64,000 nt of DNA, taken from contig CAXXMY010000017.1 in assembly GCA_963663635.2 (NCBI GenBank), positions 91,461 to 155,460 on the forward strand, read 5' to 3'. This DNA comes from Acidimicrobiales bacterium. Lineage in GTDB: Bacteria > Actinomycetota > Acidimicrobiia > Acidimicrobiales > Poriferisodalaceae. The position numbers and the translations under genes are program-made. The notes below the pieces were generated by a model. That model was not told where the DNA came from. It searched no databases and was given only the letters and a program-made list of their open reading frames with translations. This document shows positions 21,646 to 51,354 of this stretch, piece after piece; position 1 is the first letter of the stretch, and each line of letters starts with the position of its first letter.

Positions 21646-23580
21646 TCAGAAGTTTGCGAGGATGCGGCGGGCGACGTTGGCGGCGGTGTGGGTTCGGGTG
21701 CTGCCGGTGCGGCGGCGTACCGTCACTTCGCCGGGCGCAGCGTCAGAGATCGCTTCGCGCACGGCGTCGCTCACCGCTGAGCGGCCGCCCACGATGATGA
21801 CCTCACTCACCCGGTAGTCGCGAATCAGGGCCGCGGTGGCCTCGGGCAGCGCTCCCGCGGCGGTGTAGGCAACTGCTGCGTTGTCAGTGACCGCCGCCAA
21901 CGCAGCAGCAACACCCACATCAGGCGGCGACCAGCCGTTCGCGATCACCAACGTCACCCCATCAGGCGCAGCCGCAGGATCGCCCAGCACACGACGCGCC
22001 GACACCCCAGCAGTGTCGACCCGGTCCGCGCCGGTCAGCCGCAAGATGTTGGCCTCGTCCGCTGCTGCTGTCACGGCGTCCTGCACACCAGCACTCAGCG
22101 CAGCGGTGCCGCCCACGAGGATCACCCGCGCCACGTCGTAATCGCGCAACAACTCCGCAGTGCCATCAGGCAGGCTGCGCGCCTCGCTGTACGCCACCGC
22201 AGAACGGCCGCTGCGCGCAGCCAACGCAGCAGCAACACCGATGTCAGGCGGAGACCAGCCGTTCGCAATGATCAGCGTCACACGGCCGGCACCAGCAGGA
22301 CCAGCAGCGTTGCCCAGCACCCGACGCGCTGTGCCCGCCGCCGTGTCCACACGGTCAACACCCGAGACACGAGACACATCCGAACCCGACGAAGCCGCCA
22401 CGATCTGCGTGCGAACGTCACGCGACACCGCCGCGATGCCTCCCACGATGATCACCTCAGCAGGCAACGCCTCCCTCAACAGCACACTCGTCTCACCAGA
22501 CAGCACATCACCCGCCGTGTACACCACCACCGCACCAGAACTACGCGCCGCCAACACCGCCGCCACACCCACATCAGCCGGACTCCACCCATTCGCCACC
22601 ACGAACGTCGCGACACCCACATCGAAATCGCTGCTACCGCCACCGCCGCCGGAGCCGCCACCACCGCCGGTGCCACCACTGCCGGTGCCACCACTGCCGG
22701 TGCCACCACTGCCGGTACCACCAGTGCCAGTGTCCGGCGGATCGACAGCGTCCGGCGGATCGACAGCGTCCGCGGTGCGATCGGATGCAGCAGATTTTGC
22801 GAATCCATGGGCGTCGCTGTAGACGGCGACCGCGCGAATCTGGTAACCGCGGTCGTGCTCGGCGACCGTGTACTCGGTGTCGGTGACGTCAGGAATCGGG
22901 GTCCAGTCGCTGCCGTCGGTCGAGCGCTGCCATTCCCATTCGATTCGGTCGCTTTGCACACCGCCGTCAGGGTCGAGGAGGGTCGCTGACACGGTGTCGT
23001 CGGGCTCTGGCTGGTTCTTCGACAGCGTCACAGTGCCCGGTTCGTCTTCGTTGGTGACGGTGACCGTGACCATTTGGGAGAGCGTGTGCGAGTCCCCGAC
23101 CACTGCCTCGACGATGAGGTCGTAGACGTTGTCGCCGCCGTCATCCAGCGGATTCTCATGGTCGTGTGTGTCACCGGTAAACTGCAGTACGCCGTCGCTG
23201 GTGATCTCGAATTGCGAGGCGTCGACACCTTTCAGGTCCCGCTGGATGTCGCGGCCCTGAGCGTTTCTCACTGAGTACCGTGCCACGGCGCGGCTGCTGG
23301 TCTCAGGGTAATGCACTGTACTCAGGCCCGTCAGCGTGGGCGCTTCATCCACATCAGTGACGGTGATCGTCACCTGCTGGGTTGCGCTCGCGCCCGTCGG
23401 ATCAATCGCAGTCACTGCCACGCTCAACGTCGGCGTGGTCTCGTGGTCGGGAGGAACGCGGACGCTCAACTGGCCCGAACTCTGCTCGATGCTGACGTAG
23501 CGGACACCGGAGCCCGAGATGCGGTAGGTCAGAAAGTCACTGTCAGCATCAGAGGCCTCGACCGGGGGCGAACTCCATCG
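21646..23580 (-). pseudogene. 5'-truncated surface-protein gene: cadherin-like repeats, Gly/Ser/Thr linker, 3 C-terminal CWB2-like modules
   Basis: Has TVTDVDEAPT / TVTNEDEPG cadherin-like blocks and three ANGWSP.DVGVAAALAA...VGG.AAVS...R..G.DR..TA modules. There is no signal peptide. The coding frame continues upstream of the listed TTG into another cadherin-like repeat (SDADSDFLTYRISGSG) and then abuts a transposase remnant. Confidence 0.7.
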
Positions 23581-26476: not shown

Positions 26477-28186
26477 TCAGCTCAGGCCGACGATCTCACC
26501 GTCGGCGTCGAGGTCGATGTGGCGGGCGGCCGGGTCACGACCGAGGCCGGGCATGGTGCGCATGTCGCCGCAGATCGGGTAGACGAAGCCGGCACCTACC
26601 GACGCACGCACCTCGCGAACCGGCAGCGTCCAGCCCGTCGGCGCACCCTTCAGCGAGGCGTCGGACGAGATGGACAGGTGCGTCTTCGCGATGCACACGG
26701 GCAAGTTTCCGAAGCCGTTGCGTTCGTAGCTGTCGAGCTCACGGTTCGCCCGGGCGGTGTAGCTCACGTCGGCGGCGCCGTACACATTCGTCGCGACGGC
26801 GTGGATCTTGTCGCGCAGCGGAATGTCATCGGGATACAGCACAGCAAAGTCCGTCGGCTCCTCTGCGGCTTCGGCCACTGCGGTGGCGAGCTCGGCTGCG
26901 CCTGCTCCGCCGTCCGCAAAATGGGTGCATCGGGCCGAGCGGGCGCCGTACTCGGCTGCGATCTCGGCGATGGCGTCCAGATCGACCCCGTGATCGCCGG
27001 GAAATTCGTTGATGGCCACAACGGGTGACACGCCATGCATCCGCACGTTCTCGAGCTGCTTGCGCAGGTTGTCGCCGCCGGCGTGGACTTCGTCGGGATT
27101 GGCCTCGAGCAGGGCCGGGGGCAAGGGTCGTCCCGCGACGATTCGATGGTTGCCCGAATGCGCCTTGAGGCCCCGCACGGTTGCCACGATGACGGCCGCG
27201 TCTGGAGAGACGCCCGAATAGCGGCACTTGATGTTGAAGAAGCGCTCGGCGCCCATGTCGGCGCCGAATCCGGCCTCGGTCAGCAGGAAATCGGACGTGT
27301 GGATGCCGATGCGATCGGCCACGATCGAGGAGTTTCCCGTGGCGATGTTTCCGAAGGGCCCCGTGTGCACGAGCGCCGGCGTGCCTTCGAGGGTCTGCAT
27401 CAGGTTCGGCTTGATGGCCTCTCGCAGCAGCACTGCCATCGAGCCGGCAGCACCGATGTCCTCGGCGGTGACCGGTTCGCCCGAGGGGGTGTAGCCCAGC
27501 ACGATGCGGCCGAGGCGGGCGCGCAGATCCTCCATCGAGGTGCACAGCGCCAGGGTCGCCATCACTTCCGACGCAGCGGTGATATCGAAACCCGACTCGC
27601 GGGGGATGCCGTCGAGCCGGCCGCCCAGACCGATCGTGATATTGCGCAGCGCTCGGTCGTTGACGTCGAGCACTCGTCGCCAGGTGATGTTGTGGATGTC
27701 CAGGCTGGGTTCGCTGCCGTGATACAGGTGCGCATCCAGCATTGCTGCACAGAGGTTGTGCGCGGCGGTCACGGCGTGCATGTCGCCGGTGAGGTGCAGG
27801 TTGAACAGGTCCATCGGCACGACCTGGCTGTAACCGCCGCCGGCTGCGCCTCCCTTGATGCCGAACGTCGGACCCATCGACGGCTGGCGGATCGCGATGG
27901 TTGCGGTCCGGCCGATGTGGGCGAATGCCTGCCCCAGACCGACCGTGGTTGTCGTTTTTCCTTCGCCGAGCGGGGTCGGCGTGATGGCCGTCACAACCAC
28001 GTACCGGCCGCGCGGGCGATCAGCCATGGCCTCGATGGCTTCGAGACCGACCTTGGCCACACCGTGTCCGTACAGCTCCAAGAATTCCGACGGGATGCCC
28101 GCGTCATCGGCAATCTCGGTGAGCGGTCGAATTGTCGCCGCAGAGGCGATCTCCAGATCGCTCGGAAATCCACTTGCCGTGGTCAT
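26477..28186 (-). CDS. fhs: formate--tetrahydrofolate ligase
   Basis: SDLEIA N-terminus, P-loop TPLGEGKTTTTVGL, length about 570 aa. ATG 28186 is preceded by AAGGGG. Confidence 0.9.
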   Translation of the reverse strand: MTTASGFPSDLEIASAATIRPLTEIADDAGIPSEFLELYGHGVAKVGLEAIEAMADRPRGRYVVVTAITPTPLGEGKTTTTVGLGQAFAHIGRTATIAIRQPSMGPTFGIKGGAAGGGYSQVVPMDLFNLHLTGDMHAVTAAHNLCAAMLDAHLYHGSEPSLDIHNITWRRVLDVNDRALRNITIGLGGRLDGIPRESGFDITAASEVMATLALCTSMEDLRARLGRIVLGYTPSGEPVTAEDIGAAGSMAVLLREAIKPNLMQTLEGTPALVHTGPFGNIATGNSSIVADRIGIHTSDFLLTEAGFGADMGAERFFNIKCRYSGVSPDAAVIVATVRGLKAHSGNHRIVAGRPLPPALLEANPDEVHAGGDNLRKQLENVRMHGVSPVVAINEFPGDHGVDLDAIAEIAAEYGARSARCTHFADGGAGAAELATAVAEAAEEPTDFAVLYPDDIPLRDKIHAVATNVYGAADVSYTARANRELDSYERNGFGNLPVCIAKTHLSISSDASLKGAPTGWTLPVREVRASVGAGFVYPICGDMRTMPGLGRDPAARHIDLDADGEIVGLS

Positions 28187-28292
28187 ACTGCGCACCCCTT
28201 GTGCCACGCTTATCGATACGGCCGTGCAGCCGGATCGTGCCCCTTCAGCGTCGATTTGATCGTGTTCCAGCGTTACCGTAACGCGCTAGTCT

Positions 28293-28315
28293 GTTCCGCT
28301 GAGCGGAACTGTTCC
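28293..28315. promoter_or_regulatory. palindromic operator candidate in the fhs / dehydrogenase divergent promoter (site 1 of 3)
   Basis: gttccgctgagcggaac (a perfect 7-3-7 inverted repeat) overlaps ggaactgttcc (5-1-5). The reverse complement matches 33738-33760 at 21 of 23 positions. Confidence 0.6.
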
Positions 28316-28420
28316 ATCATACAGAACACGGGTGGCCTGATCGGTCACCTTTGCATGCCGTACTCTGGCGGCGCCCAGAGGCGAATTTCGGTTGCATGCT
28401 TGTCTTTGGAGGGGGTTGGC

Positions 28421-30943
28421 ATGAGCGAGTTTCCTGAAAGGGCCGACTGTGTCGTCATCGGTGCCGGAATCGTTGGCAACTGCTTGGTCGGGCATCTCAG
28501 CGACCTGGGCTGGACTGACATCGTTCTGCTCGACAAGGGACCGCTGCCCAACCCGGGCGGCTCCACTGGCCATGCCTCGAACTTCATCTTCCCGATCGAT
28601 CACTCCAAGGAGATCGTCGATCTCACCGTCGAGAGCCAGCGGCAGTACGAGGCGCTCGGCCTGCAGAACACCTGCGGGGGGCTCGAGGTGGCCCGTTCGC
28701 CTGAACGTCTCGAGGAGTTCCGCCGGCGCATGACCTCGGCCAAGTGCTGGGGGATCGAGTCAGAGCTGCTCACCGTCGACGAGGTCGTCGAGATGGTGCC
28801 CTTCATCGACGCCAGCGTCATTCTGGGCGGGTTCTATACGCCCAGCGTGTCCGCAGTGGACTCCCTGGAAACGGGCACGCAAATGCGCAAGCGGGCCCAG
28901 GACGCTGGGCACCTGTCGGTGCATGCGAATACCGAGGTGCTCGACATCGAGACCGCCCCGGGGCCCAACGGGCCGCGGGTTGCCGCCGTGGTGACCGACA
29001 AGGGGCGCATCGAGTGCTCCACGGTGGCCATCGCCTGCGGCGTGTGGAGCTCCAAGCTCGCGGAGATGGCGGGGGCGACGATCCCGTTGACGCCCGCCGT
29101 GCACCAGATGGTCGATGTCGGCCCCTTCGACGTCCTGGTGGAGACCAATCAAGAGCTGGCCTATCCGATCGTTCGGGACATGGACACGTTCTGCTATGAG
29201 CGTCAATCCGCCGGTTCCATGGAAGTGGGCAGCTACGCCCACCGGCCGATCCTGCACCGCGTCACCGACATACCGTCCAACGAGGAAGCGGCGCTGAGCC
29301 CCACGGAGCTGCCGTTCACGCCCGACGACTTCGACGAACAGCTCGAACAGGCCATCGAGCTGATGGAGTTCCTGGGCGACGGCGAGATCAAATACGCCAT
29401 TAACGGTCTGCTGTCGCTCACGCCCGACGCAGCCCCGGTGCTCGGACCCACTGTCGAGGTGGAGAACCTGTGGTCAGTAGCTGCGGTCTGGGTCAAGGAG
29501 GGCCCGGGCGTCGGCCGCCTGGTCGCCGAGTGGATGACCTACGGCTACCCGCGACTGACCGACCCGCACGGCTCAGATGTGACGAGGTTCTACCGCCAGG
29601 ACCGCAACGTTCACCACATCGAAGCCCGGGCCGACGAGCACTTCAACAAGACGTACGGCATCGTGCACCCCCGTGAGCAATGGGCGAGCCGACGCAATGT
29701 GACGTGCGGTCCCGCCAAGGCTCGCACCGACGACCTCGGCGCGTTCTATTTCGAGGCTGGCGGCTGGGAACGGCCGCACTGGTATGAGTCCAACGCAGAT
29801 CTCGTGGAGCGCTACGGGATCTCGGGACGCACGCACGAATGGGACGCCCGCTGGTGGAGCCCTATCACCGAGGCCGAACACCTGCACCTGCGTGAGCACT
29901 GCGGGCTGGTGGACGTCTCGCCGTTTCAGGTCTTCGAGGTGTCCGGCCCCGGGGTCGTGCCCTACATCGAGCACATGGTGGTCAACAAGTGCGACCTGCC
30001 CGTCGGCCGTTCGATCTACACGCCCGTGCTCACGCCCGATGGCGGATTTCGATCCGACCTCACCATCGTCCGGCTCGCGCAGGACCGGTTCCGCATCGCC
30101 ACCGGTGCGTTCGACGGCGGCCGTGACGAATACTGGTTCCGGCACAACCTGCCCGGCGACGGCGTGGCGTTCGAGAACCGCACCGAGGCGCTCGCTACCT
30201 ATGGCGTGTGGGGACCCAACGCAGTCGCGTTGCTGCAAACCCTGACCGAGACGGATCTCTCACAGGAAGCGTTCGGTTACGGGCAGGTCCGCAACGTCCT
30301 GCTGTCGGGCATCCCGACGCAGATGCTGCGCATCTCCTACGTCGGCGACGCCGGATTCGAGATCTATTGCGCCACCAGCGCCGGCCTGGCGCTGTGGGAC
30401 GCAATCTCGCAGGCCGGGCGAGACTTCGAGCTGCGCCCCGTCGGCGCCGGGGTGTATGGCACCACCGGCCGTCTCGAGAAGGGCTACCGGCTCATGGGCG
30501 CCGAGCTCGAGAGCGAGTACAACCCGGTAGAGGCCGGCCTCGCACGGCCCAAGGTGAAGGCGGCCGACTTCATCGGCAAGGATGCCTACCTTGCCGCACG
30601 CGAGGCAGATCAAGCCGCGGTGCTCGTCATGCTGGCGTTCGAGAGCCTGCAGTGCGCCGATGGCTACGACCGGTTCCCGATGGGAGCAGGCAACGAGCCG
30701 GTGCTGACGCCCGCCGGAGATCGGATCACCGATTCCCACGGGCGAGTCAGCAAGTTGACCACGGCGGGCAACGCTCCGTCCGTTGGCGCCTATCTCGCGA
30801 TGGCCTACCTGCCCACTGAGCTGGCCACGGTCGGCACCGAGCTCGCAGTGATGTACCAGAACGAGCTCTATCCGGTGACAGTTGGCGCCACGGGAGCGAA
30901 CCTGGCACTGTTCGATCCGGCTGACAGCCGGATAAAGGCCTGA
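28421..30943 (+). CDS. dimethylglycine/sarcosine dehydrogenase-like FAD oxidoreductase fused to a GcvT-type folate-binding aminomethyltransferase domain
   Basis: N-terminal VVIGAGIVGN FAD motif. C-terminal GcvT-like region (SPFQVFEVSGP, YTPVLTPDGG, GDAGFEIY). 840 aa. ATG 28421 is preceded by GGAGGGGG. The first 462 codons of the 1302-aa ORF in the track are antisense to fhs. Confidence 0.85.
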   Translation: MSEFPERADCVVIGAGIVGNCLVGHLSDLGWTDIVLLDKGPLPNPGGSTGHASNFIFPIDHSKEIVDLTVESQRQYEALGLQNTCGGLEVARSPERLEEFRRRMTSAKCWGIESELLTVDEVVEMVPFIDASVILGGFYTPSVSAVDSLETGTQMRKRAQDAGHLSVHANTEVLDIETAPGPNGPRVAAVVTDKGRIECSTVAIACGVWSSKLAEMAGATIPLTPAVHQMVDVGPFDVLVETNQELAYPIVRDMDTFCYERQSAGSMEVGSYAHRPILHRVTDIPSNEEAALSPTELPFTPDDFDEQLEQAIELMEFLGDGEIKYAINGLLSLTPDAAPVLGPTVEVENLWSVAAVWVKEGPGVGRLVAEWMTYGYPRLTDPHGSDVTRFYRQDRNVHHIEARADEHFNKTYGIVHPREQWASRRNVTCGPAKARTDDLGAFYFEAGGWERPHWYESNADLVERYGISGRTHEWDARWWSPITEAEHLHLREHCGLVDVSPFQVFEVSGPGVVPYIEHMVVNKCDLPVGRSIYTPVLTPDGGFRSDLTIVRLAQDRFRIATGAFDGGRDEYWFRHNLPGDGVAFENRTEALATYGVWGPNAVALLQTLTETDLSQEAFGYGQVRNVLLSGIPTQMLRISYVGDAGFEIYCATSAGLALWDAISQAGRDFELRPVGAGVYGTTGRLEKGYRLMGAELESEYNPVEAGLARPKVKAADFIGKDAYLAAREADQAAVLVMLAFESLQCADGYDRFPMGAGNEPVLTPAGDRITDSHGRVSKLTTAGNAPSVGAYLAMAYLPTELATVGTELAVMYQNELYPVTVGATGANLALFDPADSRIKA

Positions 30944-32906: not shown

Positions 32907-33662
32907 CTACGGGCGGGCCAGTGCCCGACCCGAGAGGTGGTTGGAGAGGTTTGCTGCGGCTTCGATGAGTGCGAGGCCGATGTCGTGGGTTCGGTTCGGG
33001 TCGGGAAACCGGTAGGCCGGGCCGTGGACGTGCAGTGCGGCGACGACCTCGCCGTCAGCGTCAAACACGGGTGCCGCCACCGAGTTGATACCAGGTGCGA
33101 ACTCCTCGTACACCCAGACGTAACCGGCGCTGCGAACCTGAGTCAGCCGTACTGCGAGCGCAGCGGCATCGGTCACGCTGTTCGCAGTGGTGGCCTCCAG
33201 CCCGCCGGCTACGTACTGCGCAATGACGTCTTCGGGCAAATGGGCCAGCCACACCAGTCCGGAGGGCACGAGGTGCATCGGGCAGTACTCGCCGATCCAC
33301 GAGCGCACCTGCACTTCGGATTCGTGCTCTACCTGGTCGAGGTAGTACACGGTCCGGTCCACACGAACGCTGACGCCTGCGGTCTCGGCCATCTGGTTGA
33401 CAAGGCCATGCAGGTGGGGTCGTGCCGCAACCACAAGGCCTCGCTCATCGCCAGAGGCACCCACGATGTCGATGAGTCCCGGGCCGATCCGGTAATCCCC
33501 GCCCGCGTCGTCCTGGGCCACCGCGCCGACGGCTTCCAATGACGTCAGCAGCCGCGCGACGGTGCTCTTCGGCAGGCCGACCTGATCGGCTACGTCGGTG
33601 ACGCCCTGCGGACCGACAGCCAATGCCCGCAGAACCGCAAATGCGCGACAAATCGACTGCAC
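32907..33662 (-). CDS. IclR family transcriptional regulator
   Basis: N-terminal wHTH (SICRAFAVLRAL....GVTDVADQVGLPKSTVARLLTSL) and a C-terminal IclR effector domain of about 250 aa in total length. Confidence 0.85.
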   Translation of the reverse strand: MQSICRAFAVLRALAVGPQGVTDVADQVGLPKSTVARLLTSLEAVGAVAQDDAGGDYRIGPGLIDIVGASGDERGLVVAARPHLHGLVNQMAETAGVSVRVDRTVYYLDQVEHESEVQVRSWIGEYCPMHLVPSGLVWLAHLPEDVIAQYVAGGLEATTANSVTDAAALAVRLTQVRSAGYVWVYEEFAPGINSVAAPVFDADGEVVAALHVHGPAYRFPDPNRTHDIGLALIEAAANLSNHLSGRALARP

Positions 33663-33760: not shown

Positions 33761-33866
33761 GCTATGAGGGCGACTAGGCTTCAGGCTGGAGCCGGAGCCG
33801 TACGATCTGGTTTTGCAGAGCATTCATTGGGGGCAATCAGTGAGGGCTTTGCACTCGGGAGGGACG

Positions 33867-35855
33867 ATGCCACGCCGAACCACTCGGCGGCGAGACAGCC
33901 GCAACGAAGCGCTGCCTCGGCTGGAAACGCCACTCGTACGAGACGGCGGCGTGTTGCGTCAGGCGACTTGGGCTGATGCCCTCGATCAGGCTGCAACGGG
34001 CCTCGGGGCCGCCACCCAGCAGCACGGTGCAGGCGGCGTCGGCATGTTCTCGTGCTCGAAGAGCACCAACGAGATGAACTACGCAGCCCAGAAGTTCATG
34101 CGGACGGTGCTGCGCTCCAACAACATCGACTCGTGTAATCGCACCTGACACGCTCCGTCCGTCGTCGGTCTGGCGACAGTGTTCGGTCTCGGAGGCGGGA
34201 CGTGCTCCTACCAAGAGATCACCGAGACCGATCTGGTTCTGCTGTGGGGCTCAAATGCCCGCGAAGCACACCCGATCTTCTTTCACCACCTCATGCGGGG
34301 GCTCGACCGCGGCGCCGCGATGTTCGCGATCGACCCGCGCCGAACCTCGTCGGCGGAGTTCGCCGATGTCTGGCTCGGCATCGACGTCGGCAGCGACATC
34401 GCACTGGCGAACGCCGCGGGCCGAGAGATCATCAGCGCTGGTCTGCACAATCGCGAGTTCATCGATCGGGCCACCACCGGCTTTGACGCGTATGCCGCGT
34501 CGGTAGAGGAATACACGCTTGACGAAGGCGAGCGCCGCACGGGCGTCCCCGCCGACGTCATTGCCGAGATGGCACATGCCTATGCCACCGCGCCCACAGC
34601 GCAGATCCTGTGGACACTCGGCATCACCGAGCACCACACCGCCGTGGAGAACGTGCTGTCGCTGTGCAATCTGGCTCTGCTGACCGGCCACGTGGGCCGC
34701 CGCGGCTCGGGTTTGGTGCCGCTGCGAGGTCAGAACAACGTCCAAGGCGGTGGCGACATGGGCGCGCTGCCCGACCGACTGCCCGGATTCCAATCCCTGA
34801 CGGACGCCGATGTTCGGGCGAAGTTCGAGGCCAGCTGGGGCTGCGAGCTGAATCCGGTGCCCGGCAACCACCTCACCAAGATGTTCGAGGCCATGGAGGA
34901 CGGCGAGCTGCGGGCGCTCTACGTCATCGGAGAGAACCCCGCCGACTCCGAGGCCAACGTGGCCCACGCCCGCAAGCTGCTCGAAGGCCTCGACTTCCTC
35001 GTCGTGCAGGACATCTCCTTGACGCGCACCGCACGCATGGCCGACGTGGTACTGCCCGCCGCAGCCGGCTGGTCGTCATCTGAAGGCACCGTCACCTCGT
35101 CGGAGCGACGAGTGCAGCGGGTGCGTGCTGCGGTGCCGCCCCAAGGCGACGCCCGCGACGATGTGCAGATCATCGGCGATCTGGCTCGGCGGATGGGTGC
35201 TCCGTGGCCGGCCGCGTCGGCCGCAGAGCTGTGGGAAGAACTGCGCTCGCTGTCGCCGATGCACGGTGGCATGACCTGGGAGCGGTTGGAGTCCGAGGGC
35301 GGCCTGCAATGGCCGTGCCCTGATGAGGAGCACCCGGGCACCGAGTTCCTGCACGCGTGGCTCTGGGAGCCCGACCTTGCAGGGCACGAACCCGCGCCGT
35401 TCACGCTCAACGAAGATCGGCCTCCTGCTGAGTCTCTCAGCGAGGAGTTCCCGCTTCGCCTGACAACCGGCCGTGTGCTCGACTCCTACAACACCGGTGC
35501 ACAGTCCGCCGGCTATCCCTCACCGATCAGATCGGGCACTGCCATCGAGTTGAGCCGTGCTGATGCTGCGACCTACGGAATCGCGGACGGGGATTCGGTG
35601 CGAGTCACCTCTCCTCGGGGCTCGGTGGTCATGGAGGCATCCATCACTGCCAGCGTGCGCCCAGGACTCGTGTTCACGACGTTCCATTTCCCCGAGCTCG
35701 TGGACCTGAACGTGCTGACCAACGACGTGTGGGACCCACGCAGCGGCACGGCTGAATTCAAGGCGGCTGCGGTGCGCATCGAACCGCTGTCGAGCGCGGC
35801 CAGCCAACGAACTGGCGGCGGAACGAGTGCAGCAGCAGGTGGTGGCGGTGGCTGA
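33867..35855 (+). CDS. fdhA: formate dehydrogenase catalytic (molybdopterin) subunit, C-terminal portion of a canonical FdsA/FdhA, with in-frame TGA 34146-34148 read as selenocysteine
   Basis: ORFs 33813-34148 and 34179-35855 share one frame and are separated only by the TGA. The context NNIDSCNRT-U-HAPSVVGLATVFG aligns with E. coli FdhF NNVDCCARV-U-HGPSVAGL. The downstream molybdopterin-oxidoreductase blocks are intact. ATG 33867 is preceded by GGGAGGGA. Confidence 0.8.
34161..34177 (+). promoter_or_regulatory. SECIS-like hairpin 12 nt downstream of the UGA
   Basis: GUCG-U-C GGUCU(G) G-CGAC forms a stem with a bulged U and a GGUCU apical loop. This is the same architecture as the E. coli fdhF SECIS apex (GGU-U-GC AGGUCU GCACC). 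Confidence 0.6.
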
Positions 35856-37755
35856 CCTGCGTTTCTCCGACGCCGAGCCCACTGCGACAGAACGCCGAGC
35901 AGTGATGGAGGCGCTCGAGACTGCGACCGACAACGGGATGTCCGCACAGTATTCCCCGCAGCCCGCACCGGCGCCCGGTAAGCCCACAATGGCCCAGAGC
36001 GAGATTGCGAACGGGTCGGTGTCGCCTTCAGGTGAGATGCGATCTGGCGTCGCGGCCGTTGTGGTCGTGCACCCGCGTGTGGTGCGAGGCGGAACCCGGC
36101 GGCGCAAGCGGCTGCGGCACCTGCTGTTGCCGGCGCTGCACGCCTTGCAACGGGAGGCGGGGTGGATCTCCCCAGGCGGGCTGAACTTCGTGGGACGCCA
36201 GCTTGGAGTGCCCCCGGCCGAGGCCTATGGCGTCGCAACGTTCTACGACATGTTCGCCACAGAGCAGCCCACGCATGCTGAGAGTGTCTGTCACGTGTGC
36301 GTCGACCCGATCTGCGCGCTCGCCGGTGCGAGCGATCTAGCGGAGCAATTGCGCTCGCAAGGCCGCCAAGTCCATCTCGGGCCGTGCCTGGGCCAGTGTG
36401 AGCGTGCTCCCGCCACGTTCATCCAAGGCCGCGGCGAACCTGACCGGGTGCCTGCCGATGCCAATGAGTCGAATTCGCTCGTTGCAAGCGTGACAGCGGA
36501 CGCTCCCGGCGCCCCGTCTCTGCTGCGACGCATGCTCACCGACGATGTGGGCCGGCCGCCTTCTGCTGAGAGCTTCACCATGGACGCCTACCAGCTGCGC
36601 GGCGGGGGAGAGGCCCTCACGGCGGCGCTGCGAATGGGCCCCGACGACGTCATCTCTGCGGTCACCGCTGCTGGACTCTCGGGCCGCGGGGGTGCTGCGT
36701 TCCCCACCGGCATCAAATGGCGAGCGGTTGCAGACGGCAGCGGCCCGAAGCATGTCGTGGCCAACATCGACGAATCAGAGCCTGGCACGTTCAAGGATCG
36801 GCTGTTGTGCGAACGCGATCCGCTGGCCGTGATCGAGTCGATTGCGGTCGCAGGCTTGGTGGTGGGCGCAGAGCACGGATGGATCTACATCCGGGGCGAG
36901 TACCCGCTGGCCACCCAGCGCCTCCGAGAGGCCATCACCGCCGCACGTGTGCACGGCTGGCTTGGCGACGACGCCGCAGGCTCGGGCCAGCGCTTCGACA
37001 TCGAGCTGCGCAGAGGCGCCGGCGCCTATATCTGTGGCGAGGAAACGGCCCTGTTCAACTCACTCGAAGGATTCCGGGGCGAGCCTCGCAACAAGCCTCC
37101 GTTCCCGACCACGAACGGGCTGTTCGGTCGACCGACCGTGGTCAACAATCCCGAGACGCTGCTCAATGTGTCCGAGATTCTCAGAATCGGCCCCGATGGG
37201 TATCGCAGCGTGGGAACGCAAGGCTCGCCGGGCGCGAAGCTGTTCTGCCTGTCGGGGCATATCGGCCGCCCAGGGCTGTACGAGGCGCCGTTCGGCATGC
37301 GGCTCGGCGATCTGCTGGAACTGGCCCACGGAGTGCAGGGCACGCTGCGAGCGGTGCTGCTCGGCGGTGCGGCCGGGAGCTTCGTGGGGCCAGAGGCGCT
37401 GGAGCTGCCGCTGTCGCTCGAGGACACCCGCGCTGCGGGAACGACGCTGGGCTCGGGACCGGTGATGGTGTTCAATGACAGTGCCGACATGAGCGCTGTG
37501 GTGCAGCGGTTGGCGCAGTTCTTTCGGGACGAGTCGTGCGGACAGTGCGTGCCGTGCCGTGTCGGAACGGTGCGCCAGCACGAGATCGTCACCCGCATTC
37601 GCGACAGGGGCGCCGCATCGGGGCGTGAACTCGAATTGATCTCCGACATCGCAGCCGCGATGGGAGACGCCTCGATATGCGGCCTCGGCCACACCGCAGC
37701 GTCCGCCGTGGTCTCGGCGCTGCGGCTCGGCTTGCTGGAGGATGCAACGACATGA
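35827..37755 (+). CDS. fused NuoE-like (2Fe-2S) and NuoF-like (FMN/NAD/4Fe-4S) diaphorase subunit of NAD-dependent formate dehydrogenase (FdsG-FdsB fusion)
   Basis: NuoE block: YGVATFYDMF ... CVDPIC ... GPCLGQCERAP. NuoF blocks: GLSGRGGAAFPTGIKW, ESEPGTFKDR, CGQCVPCRVG. Candidate GTG starts lie at 35827-35848 and overlap the upstream stop. Confidence 0.85.
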   Translation: MQQQVVAVADLRFSDAEPTATERRAVMEALETATDNGMSAQYSPQPAPAPGKPTMAQSEIANGSVSPSGEMRSGVAAVVVVHPRVVRGGTRRRKRLRHLLLPALHALQREAGWISPGGLNFVGRQLGVPPAEAYGVATFYDMFATEQPTHAESVCHVCVDPICALAGASDLAEQLRSQGRQVHLGPCLGQCERAPATFIQGRGEPDRVPADANESNSLVASVTADAPGAPSLLRRMLTDDVGRPPSAESFTMDAYQLRGGGEALTAALRMGPDDVISAVTAAGLSGRGGAAFPTGIKWRAVADGSGPKHVVANIDESEPGTFKDRLLCERDPLAVIESIAVAGLVVGAEHGWIYIRGEYPLATQRLREAITAARVHGWLGDDAAGSGQRFDIELRRGAGAYICGEETALFNSLEGFRGEPRNKPPFPTTNGLFGRPTVVNNPETLLNVSEILRIGPDGYRSVGTQGSPGAKLFCLSGHIGRPGLYEAPFGMRLGDLLELAHGVQGTLRAVLLGGAAGSFVGPEALELPLSLEDTRAAGTTLGSGPVMVFNDSADMSAVVQRLAQFFRDESCGQCVPCRVGTVRQHEIVTRIRDRGAASGRELELISDIAAAMGDASICGLGHTAASAVVSALRLGLLEDATT

Positions 37756-37765
37756 GCACACCCCG

Positions 37766-38710
37766 ATGAGCGAAGCAATGGCCGCGACGCCAGCCACCCA
37801 GACACCGGCCTTGGGGATTCCAGCATCAGAGTCCCCGGCCTCGGAAACCCGGGCAGTCACCTTGACCGTGGACGGTGCAGAAGTCTCGGTGCCCGCTGGG
37901 CAGACCGTGCTCGCAGCGTGCAACGCGGCGGGTGTTTCGACTCCCACGATCTGCTGGGCGCCCAATCTCACACCGGTCAACGTCTGCCGAGTGTGCGTGG
38001 TGGAGCTCGAAGGCTCCCGGACCCTGGTGCCCGCCTGCTCTCGGCCCGCAGAAGACGGCATGGCGATCAGCACGGACTCCGAACGGGTGCGCCACAGCCG
38101 CCGGATGGTGCTGGAGTTCCTCGGTTCTGCCAACGATCTCAGCCAGGCCACCGAGATCAACGACTGGTCTGCGGAGTACGGCGCCGACCCGGATCGCTAC
38201 GACATGGCTGAGCGGGTCGACGAGCCCGTGCGCGTTCAGGACGAGCTGTACATCCGGGATTACGACCGCTGCGTCCTTTGCTACAAGTGCGTCGAGGCCT
38301 GCGGTGACGACGCCCAGCACACGTTCGCGATCGCAGTGGCGGGACGCGGCTTCGGCGCCCGCATCCGCACCGAGTACGACATCGAACTTCCAGAATCGGC
38401 GTGCGTGTATTGCGGGAATTGTGTCGCTGTTTGTCCGACCGGGGCCTTGCAGTTCCGAACCGAATTCGATCTTCGAGCCGTGGGGGAGTGGCGCCCCGAT
38501 TCCCAGACCGTCACCCGCACCGTCTGCTCGTACTGCGGCGTCGGCTGCAATCTCGACCTTCACGTCCAGGACGAACGCATCGTGACGGTCACCTCGCCCG
38601 CTGACCACTCGGTTACGAGCGGCCATCTGTGCATCAAGGGGCGATTCGGATGGCAGTACGTCCACGCCCCCGCCTTCGAGCCCCCAGCGCCTGACGCAGC
38701 GGGGCAATAG
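37766..38710 (+). CDS. formate dehydrogenase alpha subunit, N-terminal Fe-S portion (2Fe-2S, 4Fe-4S ferredoxin motifs, Mo-bisPGD 4Fe-4S cap) encoded as a separate gene
   Basis: CRVCVVE, CVLCYKCVEAC, CVYCGNCVAVCPTGAL, CSYCGVGCNL and GHLCIKGRFG motifs. It ends right after GRFGWQYVH, which is where the gene at 33867 picks up (RLETPLVR). Confidence 0.8.
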   Translation: MSEAMAATPATQTPALGIPASESPASETRAVTLTVDGAEVSVPAGQTVLAACNAAGVSTPTICWAPNLTPVNVCRVCVVELEGSRTLVPACSRPAEDGMAISTDSERVRHSRRMVLEFLGSANDLSQATEINDWSAEYGADPDRYDMAERVDEPVRVQDELYIRDYDRCVLCYKCVEACGDDAQHTFAIAVAGRGFGARIRTEYDIELPESACVYCGNCVAVCPTGALQFRTEFDLRAVGEWRPDSQTVTRTVCSYCGVGCNLDLHVQDERIVTVTSPADHSVTSGHLCIKGRFGWQYVHAPAFEPPAPDAAGQ

Positions 38711-40950: not shown

Positions 40951-40987
40951 ATGCCGTGGCGCTCAAACGCCCCTGTCGGGCGATGGG

Positions 40988-43040
40988 TCAGGGCTCTTCG
41001 TGTATGCGCACGGTGTAGCTGCCGTCTTGCTCGGCGAGCACGGCCACCCGGTAACCCAGCACGCTGAGCGAATCCCCCGTCTGAAGCAGCGGGTACCCCT
41101 CAATCGTGCGGTCCTCGTCGCCTGCAACCTTGAGCGGTAGCGAGTGCAGGCCTGAATCGACGGTGTACACGAGGACGCGAACGGCACCCACTGGTCCCGT
41201 TCGACGTTGCGTCGTGCCTCGACGACGATCACCCTGCGATTGTCGACCGACACCGCCGCCATGAGCGTGTCGTTGCCCTGCAGCGCCTCGGGGTCAATAT
41301 GGACCAAGGCATCGGGCTCTTCGATGCAGCTGTAGATCGACAGACCCATGATCCCGAAGTCGGACGCGACGAGCACCGTGCCGTCCTTGCGCTCGGGCCG
41401 TTCGCTGTGGCCATCGCCGTCCAGGTCGGCCAAGCCGAAGATGTGCAACAGCTCGAGTGCTGCGGCCCAGCCATTGGCGGTGATCTGGCGAGTCTCAGTG
41501 TGGTGCGTCACGTTCATGCGCATCGTGGGCACGGTCCGACCGCCGACGTCAATGTTGCCGGTCGCAGTGGCGATCGAGAATTGATCGCCCGGGAAGATCG
41601 TCATGACCGCGTCAATGTCGGAGAAATCGAGCTTGCCGGCGCTCGCGTCTTCGAGGTATTCCTCCATGTAGGGGACGCTCTCGGCGACTTCGGCATGGGT
41701 GCTGTGGCGAGCTTGCGTGTTGGGGAAATCGACGAAGAGCACCGCCAGCCGAACGGTGCCCACAGCAGAGGGCGACCACACGGGCGAGTAGCCCCAGGAG
41801 TTCGTCGCTGTGATCTGTGTGAGGCTCTTGCCCGAGGCATCCATCGTCATGAGGTACGTGCCGTGATCGCCGTGATCGCCCGGGCCGCTGTCGTCGAAGA
41901 ATCGCCTGAATGCGATCGTTGAGCCATCGGGTGACCAGGACACACCCCGGTCGTGAAAGGTGCCGTCGGTCAGTTGCTTCTTGCCGCTGCCATCGATGTT
42001 GATGACCCAAATGCTGGCACGCCAATCTCCATCGCCGTGCTGCTCGAATGCGTAGGCGATCTTGTTTCCGTCGGGTGACCACGCGAGGTAGAAAGCCGAT
42101 TGGTCTGGCAGCAGTTGAGTGGGCGGGTCGGTCGCCGCACCGCCGCATGAGCCGGCGGGAAGCGCTGCTGGCGCTGTGCCATCGTCGGTGTTGCCGCTGC
42201 TGTCGCCATCGCCTGTGTCGACCGTGGTGATCGGCCTGCCGAGATACTCGGACAGTGCCGCGTCGGAAACGGCTGCGTTGCCGCCGAACACCGTGAGCTC
42301 GATGCCGTCGCTGCCGACGGCAGTTCGTGCCGAATCCATGAACCCAGCCGTCTCGACGGGTATGGCCTGCGGATCGACCAGCACCAACGGTGCACACAGA
42401 CGTGCAAGCAACGGACCGGCACTGAACGAGTAGAACGGCACGCGCGCCCTGGCCAAGCCGATGTGCTTCCGGCCGAAGCAGTCGCCGGCCGAAGCGTCGC
42501 CGTAGCGACCTTGCACTAGCTCGGCAGCCTTGATGGCTGTGTCGTAACGGGTGGCTCCGGCCAGCCGGGTCACGGTCACGCCGAGCCCGGTGAGCGAGTC
42601 CTCGACCCCCGCGCTTAACGCAGCAGTGCCGCCCATCAGCACCACATGGTCCACAGATGCGCTGCTGAGATAGGAGACCACCTCGGGATGCAGTCGGTCT
42701 CGCGGGGTCAGCAGCACCGGATGGCTGCCGCGCGCTGAGAATGGTCCTGCTACGAGCGCGTCGGCGAAGACCTCTCCGCTGGCCACAACAGCAGTCCGGC
42801 CCAGCCCGCTCATGACGCCGACGTCGCCCGGGTCGCTGGACCTGCTGCGCAGGAATCGCCCGAGCTTGCGCGCAACAGCTGCACCGGTGGCGTACCGATC
42901 GGCCCCCGAAACCCGTTCGGACGAAATGCCGAGCGACGACAGTGCGTCGGTAACGCTGTCGCTGACGCGGGCATCTGGATCTGAATCAGGCGCCTGGGTG
43001 TCGATGACCAGCACGTTCGAGACCCCGGTGAGATTCCGCC
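40988..43040 (-). pseudogene. decayed surface-protein gene: starts mid-CWB2 repeat (no signal peptide), then PD40 blades, an M6 (InhA)-like metallopeptidase-like domain and a C-terminal beta-rich domain; frameshift near 41185-41200
   Basis: The coding-like sequence begins immediately after the mttB-like stop, within a repeat. The C-terminal part continues in ORF 40988-41191 in another frame. The HExxH position reads LELLH. Confidence 0.6.
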
Positions 43041-43051
43041 CAGTGTGAGAG

Positions 43052-44593
43052 CTACACGAGAGCGTCGGGTTCCTCGGCCTTGCGGCGGGCGATGTAGTCG
43101 CGGAGCTCCTCATCGATGGCGTCATCGATCGGCGGTGCTTCGTAGTCCGCCAGCATTCGCTTCCACACCACATTGGCGCGTTGGGCCGCGTCGAGCGAGC
43201 CGTCGTCGGACCAACGCTCGAAGCTGTTGTTGTCTGCGATGGAGGACTGATAGAAGGCCGACTCGAAGTTCTCCAACGTGTGCGCGTGTCCCAGGAAATG
43301 GTTGCCGTGAGGGTTCGTGAGGAACGCTTCGACGGCCTGCCCGTTGGGCGACATGTCGATGCCCTTGGCGTAGACCTCCATCATTCCGAGCTGGTCTGCG
43401 TCCATAATGAGCTTCTCGTAGCTCAGTGCCAGGCCACCCTCGAGCCATCCCGCTGCGTGCAGCACGAAGTTCACGCCCGCTGACATCGTGGGCAGCAGCG
43501 TGGATGCCGATTCGTACGCCGCCTGCGCATCGGGAGCTTTGGAGGACGTGAACTGCCCGCCGGAACGGAACGGCAGTCCGACGCGCCGCGCGAGCTCTGC
43601 CATGACGTAGATGGCCAAGCCCGCCTCGGGCGTGCCGAACGTCGGGGCTCCGGTCGCCATCGACATCGATGAGGCGAATGTTCCAAAGATCACCGGTGCG
43701 CCCGGGCGCACCAGCTGGCAGAACGCCATGCCCGACAGCGCCTCGGCCAGGCACTGTGCTGCCAGTGCAGCCACCGTGACCGGCGACATCGCCCCCGCCA
43801 AGATGAACGGCGAGATGACGCATGCCTGGTTGTGCCGTGCATAGACCTCAGCGGACTCCAGCATCGTCGCATCCCAGCGCAGCGGGGACGACGCATTGAT
43901 GAGGCTGGTGAGCACCGTGCGGTCGCCCAGATCACCACCGAACGCGATACGGCACAGCTCGACCGAATCCTCGGCTCGCTTCGCAGCGGTGACCGAGCCC
44001 ATGAGCGGCTTGTCGCTGTACCGCAGATGGGAATACACCATGTCGAGGTGGCGCTTGTTCACCGGCACATCCACCGGCTCGCACACGGTGCCGCCGCTGT
44101 GGTGCAGGTGGGGGAGCATCCACGTCAGCTTCACCACGTTCTCGAAGTCGGCCAGCGTGGCGTAGCGACGACCCTCGTCGAGGTCGGTCACGAACGGCGA
44201 TCCGTAGTTCGGCGCAAATACCGTCGCGTCGCCGCCGATCGGCACGGACCGCGCCGGGTTTCGGGCGTGCTGAATGTATGTGGAGGGCGCGTTTTCTTGG
44301 ACGATCTGCCGGCACATTCCGCGGGGAAATCGGACGAGCTCCCCATCGACATCGGCACCCGCGGCGCGCCACAGCTCCAACGCACGGGGGAATTCCTGAA
44401 AGGCGATGCCCACCTCGGACAGGATCGTCTCGGCATTCGCCTCGATCTGGGCCAGGCCGGCCTCGTCCAGCACACTGACCGGCGGCAGCCTGCGGGTCAG
44501 GTGCGTGTTGGTGACGGCGTCACTGGCCGCCCGCCTGGCCTGGCGGGCCGCCCTGCCGCCTTCTCGTCGTCGTGTCCGCTGGCTCATGTTCAC
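43052..44593 (-). CDS. MttB-superfamily methyltransferase, non-pyrrolysine type (quaternary amine:corrinoid methyltransferase candidate)
   Basis: Full-length uninterrupted ORF of 513 aa with MttB-family blocks (VLDEAGL..I...A..IL.E.G, GSPFV.D, GGTVCEP, SPLRWD, INFVLHAAGWLEGGL). No in-frame TAG. Start is GTG 44593 or ATG 44587. Confidence 0.8.
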   Translation of the reverse strand: MNMSQRTRRREGGRAARQARRAASDAVTNTHLTRRLPPVSVLDEAGLAQIEANAETILSEVGIAFQEFPRALELWRAAGADVDGELVRFPRGMCRQIVQENAPSTYIQHARNPARSVPIGGDATVFAPNYGSPFVTDLDEGRRYATLADFENVVKLTWMLPHLHHSGGTVCEPVDVPVNKRHLDMVYSHLRYSDKPLMGSVTAAKRAEDSVELCRIAFGGDLGDRTVLTSLINASSPLRWDATMLESAEVYARHNQACVISPFILAGAMSPVTVAALAAQCLAEALSGMAFCQLVRPGAPVIFGTFASSMSMATGAPTFGTPEAGLAIYVMAELARRVGLPFRSGGQFTSSKAPDAQAAYESASTLLPTMSAGVNFVLHAAGWLEGGLALSYEKLIMDADQLGMMEVYAKGIDMSPNGQAVEAFLTNPHGNHFLGHAHTLENFESAFYQSSIADNNSFERWSDDGSLDAAQRANVVWKRMLADYEAPPIDDAIDEELRDYIARRKAEEPDALV

Positions 44594-49415: not shown

Positions 49416-51128
49416 TCAGGGCGAAATTGCGTTCACGGCGGCGACCACGTGCTCTGCGGTCTCACCGACTTCGATCAGTTGCGTCTCGCCGGTCAGGCGT
49501 TCGGTCAGCTCGAGCTTCCCCTGTGCGAGGCTCCGAGCCCCGACAGTGACCCGGAAGGGGATGCCGACCAACTCTGCGTCAGCCAACTTCACTCCGGGAC
49601 GGAGAGCGCGGTCGTCATAGATGCAGTCGATGTTCCGACGCTGCAATTCGGCGTACAACACCTCGCCGACGCTGGACTGCGCGGCGTCGGCGGGATCGAG
49701 CACCGTCACGACGACGTGAAATGGCGCAATGGCCACGGGCCAGCACAGTCCGCGGTCGTCGTAGTGCGTCTCGGCCACGGCTGCCATCGCCCGGCCGATG
49801 CCGATGCCGTAGCTGCCCATGATCGGCGTGCGTGCGATGCCGTCGGTGTCGAGCACCGACACGCCCATTGCCTCGGCGTACCGGCGCCCAAGCTTGAAGA
49901 TGTGACCGGCTTCGATGCAGCGGACGATCTCGAGCGCTGCTCCGCACTCAATACACGCTTCACCCGCCGACACCTCGCGGAGATCCGCCCAGCGCGGGCC
50001 GACAAGGTCACGTTCGACGTCAACACCTCGATAGTGCCAATCGTCGGAATTCGCGCCGGTCGTCATCGACCGCCGTCCTCGCAACGCTACGTCGGCATAG
50101 ACCGGCAGGTGATCGACGCCGAGGGCCCCCAAGCTGCCTGGATTGGCACCGAGCCCGGCGACGGTCTCGGCGGCCGACGCCGGCCGAATGTCGGCGGCAC
50201 CGGTGTGATCCGCAAGCTTCTGCAGATTCAGCTGGTGGTCTCCCCGCAGCGCAACGAGGGTGACTTCGCCGTCCAGCACCATCACCATCGTCTTGATCTG
50301 CCGGGAGGCCTCTGCGCCGCCGTCAAAGTCGCTGAGCTGGGCAATAGTCCGCACGCCAGGGGTGGGGAATCGCTCGGGGGCAGGACCCGACGGCGGATCG
50401 TCGACTGGCGGCACCGCAGCACGCGCCCGCTCGACATTGGCCCGGTAACTGCACGCTCCGCAGCGAGCGACGTCGTCCTCACCTGCAGGAGAAGCGACCA
50501 TGAATTCGACGCTGGCAGAGCCGCCCATGGCACCCGAAGAGGCCTCCACCGCCATGGCGTCCAGCCCGAGCCGCTCGAAAATCCGCAGATAGGCCTCGCG
50601 GTGTGCCTCGAACGAGACATCAAGGCCGGATTCGTCGATGTCGAAGCTGTAGGAGTCCTTCATTACGAATTCGCGAACCCGCAGCAGGCCGCTCTTGGGC
50701 CTGGGCTCGTCGCGAAATTTGGTCTGGATCTGGTACCACGTCTGAGGCAGCTCACGATACGAGCTCATCTCCGCAGCCAGCAGCGCGAAGACTTCCTCGT
50801 GGGTCATGCCCAACACGACGTCGACATCGTTTCGGTCTCGCAGCCGGAACATCTCCGCACCCATGACGTCCCACCGGCCGCTGCGCTGCCACAGCGTTGC
50901 CGGGTGCATCGCAGGGAGCAAGAACTCCTGTGCACCCATGGCGTCCATTTCGGCTCGGACGATGTCGGCCACTCTGCGATGAACGCGCAGCCCCAGCGGC
51001 AGCAAGCTGTAGTGGCCGGAGTGCAGCTGGCGGATGAAGCCGGCGCGAACGAGCAGCCGATGGCTGGCGGCTTCGGCGTCTGCGGGCGGCTCGCGCAGCG
51101 TGGGTATGAACGAATCAGACCATCGCAT
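49416..51128 (-). CDS. proS: proline--tRNA ligase
   Basis: Class II aaRS motifs and ProRS-specific blocks (FIPTLRE, RAGFIRQ, FRDE.RP..GL.R.REF, a bacterial-type insertion domain, and a C-terminal anticodon-binding domain). Confidence 0.9.
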   Translation of the reverse strand: MRWSDSFIPTLREPPADAEAASHRLLVRAGFIRQLHSGHYSLLPLGLRVHRRVADIVRAEMDAMGAQEFLLPAMHPATLWQRSGRWDVMGAEMFRLRDRNDVDVVLGMTHEEVFALLAAEMSSYRELPQTWYQIQTKFRDEPRPKSGLLRVREFVMKDSYSFDIDESGLDVSFEAHREAYLRIFERLGLDAMAVEASSGAMGGSASVEFMVASPAGEDDVARCGACSYRANVERARAAVPPVDDPPSGPAPERFPTPGVRTIAQLSDFDGGAEASRQIKTMVMVLDGEVTLVALRGDHQLNLQKLADHTGAADIRPASAAETVAGLGANPGSLGALGVDHLPVYADVALRGRRSMTTGANSDDWHYRGVDVERDLVGPRWADLREVSAGEACIECGAALEIVRCIEAGHIFKLGRRYAEAMGVSVLDTDGIARTPIMGSYGIGIGRAMAAVAETHYDDRGLCWPVAIAPFHVVVTVLDPADAAQSSVGEVLYAELQRRNIDCIYDDRALRPGVKLADAELVGIPFRVTVGARSLAQGKLELTERLTGETQLIEVGETAEHVVAAVNAISP

Positions 51129-51354
51129 CCGATGCAGGATAAGCGGGGGAGCGATGACGGCAAAGCGTTGTGATGGCCTCGGGGCCCGCTACCCTCAACC
51201 CCCGACACCGATGGCCGCGCGTCGACCGCGCGGTCTCGGCCACGGACCGGGGCAGCAAATGTCCCCTTCGGGTCCTGCATCGGCGGCTCGGGTGAAGCGC
51301 AATTGCGGCTCGAGCGGACGTTGCGGTTGCTCTCCCGGTCGACTCCTTGACGCG

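Follow-up and report, generated by a model that had tools for sequence, protein, structure and literature searches.

A formate dehydrogenase (FDH) gene interrupted by an in-frame TGA was found in the stretch of DNA analysed here (hereafter the window), which comprises 64,000 nucleotides (nt; 64 kb) of contig CAXXMY010000017.1 from an Acidimicrobiales bacterium of the family Poriferisodalaceae (assembly GCA_963663635.2). Comparison with related loci indicates that this codon, UGA 34146, very probably encodes selenocysteine (Sec) within one FDH gene. All coordinates are positions in the window unless a locus (L-number) is named.

The in-frame TGA and the reading frame around it

The sequence around the codon, which occupies 34146-34148, is AAT CGC ACC TGA CAC GCT CCG TCC GTC GTC GGT CTG GCG ACA, and translation of 33813-35855 in one frame gives NNIDSCNRT before the TGA and HAPSVVGL after it, with the next stop only at 35853-35855. 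The mechanical open reading frame (ORF) list contains two pieces in that frame, 33813..34148 and 34179..35855, which the first-pass annotation, made from the sequence alone, had joined into a single selenoprotein gene. ATG 33868 is the likely start, as the gene call in L001 (a contig with 99% identity), a 93-aa fragment, agrees with it, and it is preceded by GGGAGGG, presumably the ribosome-binding site. The gene uses TGA twice, as the proposed Sec codon at 34146 and as the terminator at 35853.

The same annotation had assigned the codon to the active-site position of FDH, and this holds in the residue-level alignment to Escherichia coli FdhF (PDB 1aa6_A), which was obtained with the N-terminal 295 residues (E 1.1e-70; E 1.2e-127 for the full-length protein). 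In this alignment 'nnidscnrtChapsvvgl' is placed against 'nnvdccarvXhgpsvagl', the codon being aligned to Sec140, and both the active-site His141 and the Arg333 motif are kept (LRGQNNVQG vs VRGQNNVQG in FdhF). The protein possesses the Pfam domains Molybdopterin (PF00384, 5.7e-66) and Molydop_binding (PF01568, 7.7e-27). A 60% identical homologue, P0105 from locus L084, has the Cys codon TGC at the aligned Sec position.

The conservation of the codon was followed in 84 loci, namely the window, L001-L003 and 80 genomes of distinct Acidimicrobiia species with 66-89% protein identity, picked on protein similarity and independently of codon identity. The 80 species loci come from a one-genome-per-species scan and nearly all of them are labelled Acidimicrobiia or lower Acidimicrobiia taxa; the closest belongs to Candidatus (Ca.) Poriferisodalis (89% identity), and the others include Ca. 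Aldehydirespirator, Microthrixaceae and Ilumatobacteraceae. The Sec codon is TGA in 84/84 loci and TAG in none, flanked by CNRT and HAPSVVGL. The stop codons of the 35 window ORFs supported by Pfam are TGA (24) and TAG (11), with no TAA, which means that UGA is a normal stop in this organism; because TAG is also a common stop here, one would expect a plain stop at 34146 to have become TAG here and there among the lineages, and this is never seen. The peptide HAPSVVGLA, located between the TGA and the downstream 'start', is invariant in all 84 loci, and the following Thr is kept in 93%. When compared with the nearest relatives, both flanks of the TGA, read in one frame, are under purifying selection, with a ratio of nonsynonymous to synonymous substitution rates (dN/dS) of 0.05-0.13. 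The whole three-gene operon described below is intact in every one of the 84 loci, which span several families, together with the TGA and the hairpin that follows it. The joining of the two pieces into one gene is thus well founded.

Were the TGA a true stop, two polypeptides would be produced, one of 93 aa from the N-terminal part and the other of ~558 aa starting from GTG 34179. In favour of this, the alpha subunit is already divided in this family, the Fe4S4 domain being located on another protein, and gene callers do find a start codon downstream. Nevertheless, such an arrangement is extremely unlikely: TGA is kept in all 84 loci though TAG is a common stop, and the ten codons from the TGA to GTG 34179 (HAPSVVGLAT, virtually invariant and including the catalytic His) would go untranslated. 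Besides, the downstream starts vary between homologues (MFGLGGG... vs MVGLATV...), the metal ligand would be lost at a position where homologues have exactly Cys or Sec, and the conserved hairpin would be left without a role.

Sec-containing FDH alpha subunits with a Sec insertion sequence (SECIS) right behind the UGA belong to textbook knowledge, and it is well known that such genes get mis-annotated. The first-pass annotation expected standard gene callers to split the gene, and this is what is seen in databases: protein search returned thousands of homologues, and nearly all of the best 120 are post-TGA fragments of 526-577 aa covering ~82% of the read-through query, while contig annotations of relatives contain a called pair of fragments, 93-103 aa and 557-560 aa. 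The catalytic subunit is mis-called as two fragments or as a truncated protein in most public records of the clade, so that metabolic reconstructions of sponge-associated and other Acidimicrobiia will miss a functional FDH.

The hairpin downstream of the TGA

The 17-nt sequence GTCGTCGGTCTGGCGAC (34161-34177, TGA+15 to +31) starts 12 nt past the TGA within the codons V-V-G-L-A-T and is identical in 76/84 loci. It is the element which had been described at the first pass as a hairpin with a GGUCU loop, 12 nt downstream of the codon, and likened to the SECIS of E. coli fdhF; position and loop were both correct. In the RNAalifold consensus the pentaloop GGUCU is closed by a 6-bp stem, one pair of which is a U.G wobble. 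Bacterial selenoprotein genes likewise have a hairpin with a conserved G/U-containing loop that begins about 11-25 nt 3' of the UGA.

All six codons are four- or six-fold degenerate, and their codon entropy is 0.09, 0, 0, 0, 0.09 and 0.5 bit, respectively, compared with 1.3-1.9 bit for the codons neighbouring the hairpin and a gene mean of 1.52. Values below 0.1 bit are found at only 5 of the 210 conserved codons of the gene with at least four-fold degeneracy, and these five are the consecutive codons +5 to +9 (GTC GTC GGT CTG GCG). As the synonymous sites are frozen exactly over the hairpin, selection acts on the RNA rather than on the protein.

Additional diversity was obtained by scanning metagenome contigs with a pattern fixing only C-N-R-T-TGA-H-A-P, which resulted in 108 further TGA loci, and all the hairpin variants in these keep the pairing. 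Pairs of the 6-bp stem with its 5-nt loop were counted in alignment A1, consisting of 150 distinct 48-nt segments, and 99.9% of the 900 stem cells turned out to be paired. The stem changes include C-G to G-C in 7 sequences, G-C to A-U, U-A and G.U, U.G to C-G in 35 sequences and to U-A in 4, and U-A to U.G in 25, with single wobble variants in the remaining two pairs. Two pairs have double-sided changes and there are 9 extra pair types, values reached by 0/500 shuffles, and when the 3' partner was slid by 1-3 columns as a control, the pairing dropped to 16-85%. Four of the five loop letters (G, G, C and U) never vary; at the central position U is kept in at least 90% of the 150 sequences, with G in four.

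The bulged U proposed by the first-pass annotation could not be upheld, since that U pairs with G and covaries with it in the 35 C-G and 4 U-A sequences mentioned above. The bulged-U model was also tried on its own and rejected: it leaves 5 unpaired cells at its fifth pair, has a lower score and does not account for the replacement of U.G by C-G and U-A.

Comparison with Cys orthologues, suggested in the first pass, is provided by locus L084, in which VVGL is encoded by GTG GTC GGC CTC, and the GGUCU loop motif and two stem pairs are gone, in agreement with the claim of a selenoprotein with an fdhF-like SECIS. Both strands of the 64 kb were scanned for a TGA in an open frame with a hairpin 8-30 nt further on (stem of 5 bp or more, loop GG[U/G]C[U/C]), and only the site at 34146 was found. 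When applied to 1.58 Mb of related loci, the scan gave the FDH sites and 5 off-frame, apparently spurious hits, leaving no credible site for a second selenoprotein gene with this hairpin type in the window or in those loci. The covariation-supported picture of a minimal bacterial SECIS obtained here, a hairpin 12 nt past the UGA with a 6-bp stem and a GGUCU loop, might help SECIS prediction in GC-rich genomes.

In L085, a 2.2-kb contig from farmland soil, CGA (Arg) replaces the Sec TGA and the hairpin is retained (positions 410-460 of the contig, GTCGTCGGTCTGACGAC), its G13 being changed to A, by which the wobble pair becomes U-A. The CGA is probably either a recent (inactivating) change or an assembly or sequencing error.

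A continuous protein would also be obtained by read-through without selenium, either with Cys or Trp inserted by a near-cognate tRNA or a mis-acylated tRNA(Sec), or with UGA reassigned to sense, and Cys does work in homologues; beyond this, nothing direct speaks for such decoding. The genetic code is standard, as UGA terminates the 24 supported ORFs counted above, including this very gene at 35853, and the reassignment was rejected on this ground. The hairpin is of the SelB type, matching E. coli fdhF in the letters of its loop and in its offset, which favours SelB-dependent decoding, the selB, selA, selD and selC genes adjoin other members of the family, and if Cys were sufficient, TGC or TGT would be expected among the 84 loci. 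We give hardly any credence to this explanation.

Search for selenocysteine genes in related loci and in the window

Genes for Sec synthesis and insertion adjoin the FDH genes in four metagenomic loci of the same FDH family, L104, L110, L179 and L132, which have the same FDH context and the hairpin, and tRNA-Sec is present in three of them (Table 1), in further support of the selenoprotein claim. The sel genes of L104, L110 and L179 score above the NCBIfam cut-offs of TIGR00474 (selA), TIGR00475 (selB) and TIGR00476 (selD), and the tRNA-Sec genes of the same loci match Rfam RF01852 with 69-72 bits vs the threshold of 47. Among the best 120 matches of the L104 SelB the named ones are mostly Rhizobiales (Nitrobacteraceae and relatives), and among the best 120 of the L179 SelB they are mostly Chloroflexota or Limnocylindrales. 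The SECIS is nearly identical in loci whose SelB proteins resemble those of different phyla, which suggests that the FDH family has spread horizontally across phyla, the enzyme perhaps having been transferred more than once along with its recoding signal.

In published sponge-symbiont bins, SelA and SelB co-occur in most cases, including Acidimicrobiia bin76 (PMC5649159, Table S4). The genomes of Actinomarina, a member of the class Acidimicrobiia, contain selA, selC and selD in 84/84 complete cases, with a divergent selB scoring under the annotation threshold (bioRxiv 10.64898/2026.04.03.716425). The Sec machinery and a single Sec-FDH are found in ~40% of 244 mycobacterial genomes (PMC13449736), and FdhA is the most widespread bacterial selenoprotein, known from 822 organisms (PMC5029168). 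Given these reports, the first-pass remark that selenoprotein FDHs are uncommon in Actinobacteria was overstated. No literature was found linking Ca. Poriferisodalis or Aldehydirespirator to selenium.

Several observations weigh against Sec at this codon. No tRNA-Sec, selA, selB or selD is present in the 64-kb window, in which ARAGORN detected no tRNA gene at all, no Rfam match was obtained, and SelA, SelB and SelD were found neither by Pfam among 39 ORFs nor by tblastn with E. coli SelA, SelB and SelD as queries. Likewise, in the 83 related Acidimicrobiia loci (~20 kb each) no tRNA-Sec or sel gene was detected up to 10 kb from the FDH genes. An Acidimicrobiia SelB was not reached by homology from the SelB proteins of L104 and L179, which gave only Rhizobiales-like and Chloroflexota-like matches, and the ~90% complete sponge Acidimicrobiia bin134 is without SelA/SelB annotation (PMC5649159, Table S4). 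As to the hairpin, its folding energy is no better than that of dinucleotide shuffles (z -0.9 for 26 nt and +0.8 for 50 nt), and conservation does not extend into a longer lower stem. Moreover, some of the conserved nucleotides are dictated by the invariant peptide, and only the covariation and the evidence from third positions are independent of it. The folding energy is uninformative here because the sequence is GC-rich, and it was dropped in favour of the comparative evidence. An E. coli-like extended lower stem was rejected, as RNAalifold over 50 and 63 nt retains the 6-bp apical stem only.

The lack of sel genes and tRNA-Sec in the window and near the gene in its relatives, as well as bin134, would also be in line with a relic, i.e. 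a non-functional pseudogene stopping at 34146 in a lineage which has lost the Sec machinery, and SECIS-bearing FDH pseudogenes do occur in mycobacteria (PMC13449736). Decay would be expected to bring frameshifts, other stops or Cys replacements. The low dN/dS on both sides of the TGA, the integrity of the TGA, hairpin and operon throughout the 84 loci and the hairpin synonymous sites, which are still frozen, all speak against a relic, which we consider very unlikely, though of the rival explanations it carries the most weight as long as the genome has not yielded sel genes.

With Sec as the preferred meaning of UGA 34146, a ribosome holding this codon in the A site would be offered the loop of the hairpin 12 nt downstream, to which the C-terminal domain of SelB would bind. 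SelB would bring Sec-tRNA(Sec) in competition with release factor 2, and the second UGA (35853-35855), having no such hairpin, would terminate translation. The predicted Sec-spanning peptide is CNRT-U-HAPSVVGLATVFGLGGGTCSYQEITETDLVLLWGSNAR. Selenium and a Sec-decoding system would then be needed by the organism, which fits the earlier observation of selA/selB enrichment in sponge symbionts.

The three-gene enzyme, its neighbourhood and the closest known systems

The genes at 33868-38710 are predicted to encode a three-subunit, NAD-linked, metal-dependent FDH (Table 1). The diaphorase subunit contains the Pfam domains 2Fe-2S_thioredx, Complex1_51K and NADH_4Fe-4S and matches the NCBIfam models nuoF_fam (1.8e-121) and nuoE_fam (4.2e-17); its mechanical ORF starts at 35827, and the gene call in the 99% relative L001 corresponds to ATG 35905. 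The iron-sulfur subunit has the Pfam domains Fer2_4, Fer4_7 and a C-terminal Molybdop_Fe4S4 (residues 256-308), amounting to a 2Fe-2S and two 4Fe-4S domains.

According to Pfam, the catalytic subunit has no N-terminal Fe4S4 domain. It matches the NCBIfam model TIGR01591 (Fdh-alpha) over profile positions 51-672 with 629.8 bits, below the cut-off of 666.25, and positions 1-50 are matched by residues 260-309 of the protein encoded at 37742-38710. The protein thus has the active-site Sec/Cys-His pair and the conserved Arg of such enzymes, but lacks an Fe4S4 domain of its own and falls short of the TIGR01591 cut-off. Judging from these profile matches, the alpha subunit is genetically split right after the Fe4S4 domain, which is encoded two genes downstream. 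For neither part of the split subunit does a curated NCBIfam model reach its cut-off. The order A-B-C (catalytic, NuoEF fusion, Fe-S) is seen in every related locus that is long enough, including the Cys homologue and L104, and L110 has the order B-C-A (NuoEF, Fe-S, catalytic) with the pieces still being separate genes. The closest solved structures are T. kivui HDCR (hydrogen-dependent carbon dioxide reductase) FdhF, M. hungatei Fdh, E. coli FdhF, R. capsulatus FdsA and M. extorquens Fdh1A, with the best E-value for 7qv7_S (7.8e-142) and 1.3e-124 for FdsA (6tg9_A).

Table 1 Features of the FDH region and Sec genes of related metagenomic loci (bis-PGD, bis-pyranopterin guanine dinucleotide; FMN, flavin mononucleotide)
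Feature	Positions	Strand	Details
IclR-family regulator	32907..33662	-	Divergent, immediately upstream; Pfam HTH_IclR, IclR_C; same position in L001-L003
FDH catalytic (Mo/W-bis-PGD) subunit	33868..35855	+	Read through TGA 34146; 662 codons; own TGA stop 35853-35855
In-frame TGA, proposed Sec codon	34146..34148	+	Equivalent of E. coli FdhF Sec140; catalytic His codon directly after
SECIS apical hairpin	34161..34177	+	Stem 34161-34166 (GUCGUC) with 34172-34177 (GGCGAC), loop 34167-34171 (GGUCU)
Diaphorase subunit, NuoE-like [2Fe-2S] fused to NuoF-like FMN/NAD(H)-binding + [4Fe-4S]	35905..37755	+	Pfam, NCBIfam
Iron-sulfur subunit, NuoG-like N-terminal part of normal FdsA	37742..38710	+	Alternative start 37766
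L104, beside FDH genes	1-8660 of L104		tRNA-Sec, selB
L110, beside FDH genes	1-6317 of L110		selD, tRNA-Sec, selA, start of selB
L179, beside FDH genes	1-8515 of L179		selB, selA, tRNA-Sec, selD
L132, beside FDH genes			Partial selD

The domain content matches that of NAD-linked FDHs, which suggests NAD+ as the acceptor. The Sec would be a ligand of the Mo/W centre, beside the catalytic His, whichever of the two metals is used. Electrons would pass from this site to the Fe4S4 cluster on the separate iron-sulfur protein, along the Fe-S chain of that protein to the FMN of the NuoE/NuoF fusion and finally to NAD+.

The genomic setting points to one-carbon (C1) metabolism. The neighbourhood at 25511-49313, syntenic in L001-L003, includes MTHFR, formate-tetrahydrofolate (THF) ligase, a DAO/GCV_T (dimethylglycine-dehydrogenase-like) gene, the beta and alpha subunits of electron transfer flavoprotein (ETF), the IclR regulator, MFS and EamA transporters, an MttB-family methyltransferase, RACo, a pterin-binding methyltransferase and a B12-binding corrinoid protein, and looks like a glycine betaine demethylation island. 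In this setting the enzyme might dispose of the formate originating from methyl-group oxidation of glycine betaine and related compounds, and the IclR-family regulator may, from its position, control the FDH genes.

The mechanical ORF of the DAO/GCV_T gene (27035-30943, 1302 aa) is inflated by an open upstream frame overlapping the formate-THF ligase gene on the opposite strand; in the 99% relative the gene is called with a length of 840 aa. There are three large proteins which may be surface or S-layer-associated: 16677-19724 with CWB2 cell-wall-binding domains and PD40/beta-propeller repeats, 21646-23469 (-) with CWB2 only, and 40963-43173 (-), whose L001 counterpart carries CWB2, Tricorn-like and PD40 domains. 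One of the three interrupts the C1 gene neighbourhood. The window also contains a GmrSD_C-type endonuclease-domain protein at 9614-10672 (-) and a 1310-aa SNF2-family helicase with DUF3670 at 51034-54966 (+), which may serve defence or repair and are unrelated to the FDH.

What is new here is the lineage, sponge-associated Acidimicrobiales, for which no published mention was found; mildly new are the alpha split with the permuted order of its parts and the bulge-less minimal SECIS, near-identical across loci whose neighbouring SelB proteins resemble those of different phyla. A broader interpretation, to which we assign somewhat less than an even chance, combines these features into a large subfamily of NAD-linked Sec-FDHs, of which no description was found. 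Its members would have no NCBIfam model above cut-off, a split and permuted alpha subunit (catalytic, NuoEF, Fe-S) and a 17-nt SECIS without a bulge, nearly the same in Acidimicrobiia and in the loci with Rhizobiales-like and Chloroflexota-like SelB. The enzyme would have been transferred horizontally more than once with its recoding signal and, in sponge symbionts, would be part of an island for oxidation of glycine betaine and methyl groups. If so, a part of sponge-symbiont carbon metabolism would be selenium-dependent. Current understanding is not overturned by any of these results.

Among the known systems, E. coli FdhF belongs to the same superfamily and shares with the window protein the aligned Sec with His next to it, the Arg333 motif and the post-Sec peptide H-A/G-P-S-V-V/A-G-L. 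It differs in having its own Fe4S4 domain and in feeding the hydrogenase-3 complex, with no NAD-reducing module. The minimal SECIS of E. coli is a 17-nt apical hairpin located 11-12 nt past the UGA. In the fdhF SECIS, whose sequence is present in 5420/5426 E. coli genomes, GGUCUG is found 18 nt past the UGA, just as in the window. The fdhF element, however, has a bulged U, a GGUC tetraloop closed by A-U and a longer 40-nt stem, whereas the window stem is continuous and its loop is GGUCU.

The FdsABG/FdsGBA enzymes (Rhodobacter capsulatus 6TG9/6TGA, Cupriavidus necator) and Fdh1AB of M. extorquens (7E5Z, 7VW6) likewise combine NuoE/NuoF/NuoG-like modules with an FdhF-like catalytic domain and, like the enzyme described here, probably have a role in C1 metabolism. 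As in the FdsABG type, a NuoF-like and a NuoE-like subunit are encoded with the catalytic subunit, here as one fused protein, which presumably resembles Fdh1B of M. extorquens. The alpha subunits of FdsABG and Fdh1AB are single polypeptides of ~950-1000 aa in which the NuoG-like Fe-S region is fused to the catalytic domain, whereas the window alpha subunit is cut after the Fe4S4 domain and its Fe-S part is a separate gene (37742-38710), encoded last (A-B-C); the window protein aligns only from ~residue 308 of FdsA and ~372 of Fdh1A onward. FdsABG and Fdh1AB use Cys and are not known to contain Sec.

HylABC-FdhF2 and the HDCR FDH (Thermoanaerobacter kivui FdhF, 7QV7) also have the catalytic subunit separate from the NuoG-/NuoF-like or other Fe-S subunits, but the Fe4S4 domain stays on their catalytic subunit, the window protein aligning from residue 63 of 7qv7_S. 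The fdhA SECIS of Moorella thermoacetica, a Firmicute with an NADP-linked tungsten FDH, was co-crystallised with the winged-helix domains of SelB. It probably has a continuous stem with a GGUCU-type loop and no E. coli-like bulge, in which case its structure would be the one favoured here for the window hairpin; a text search for the Moorella sequence gave nothing of use.

The mycobacterial Sec-FDH (PMC13449736) differs in that the mycobacterial sel genes (selC-selA-selB/selD) adjoin the FDH gene, which is not the case within 10 kb in the Acidimicrobiia loci. In other respects it is similar: it comes from the same phylum, is a single selenoprotein FDH with a SECIS just past the UGA in organisms where UGA is the dominant stop and annotation fails, and horizontal transfer of FDH and sel genes has been proposed for it as well.

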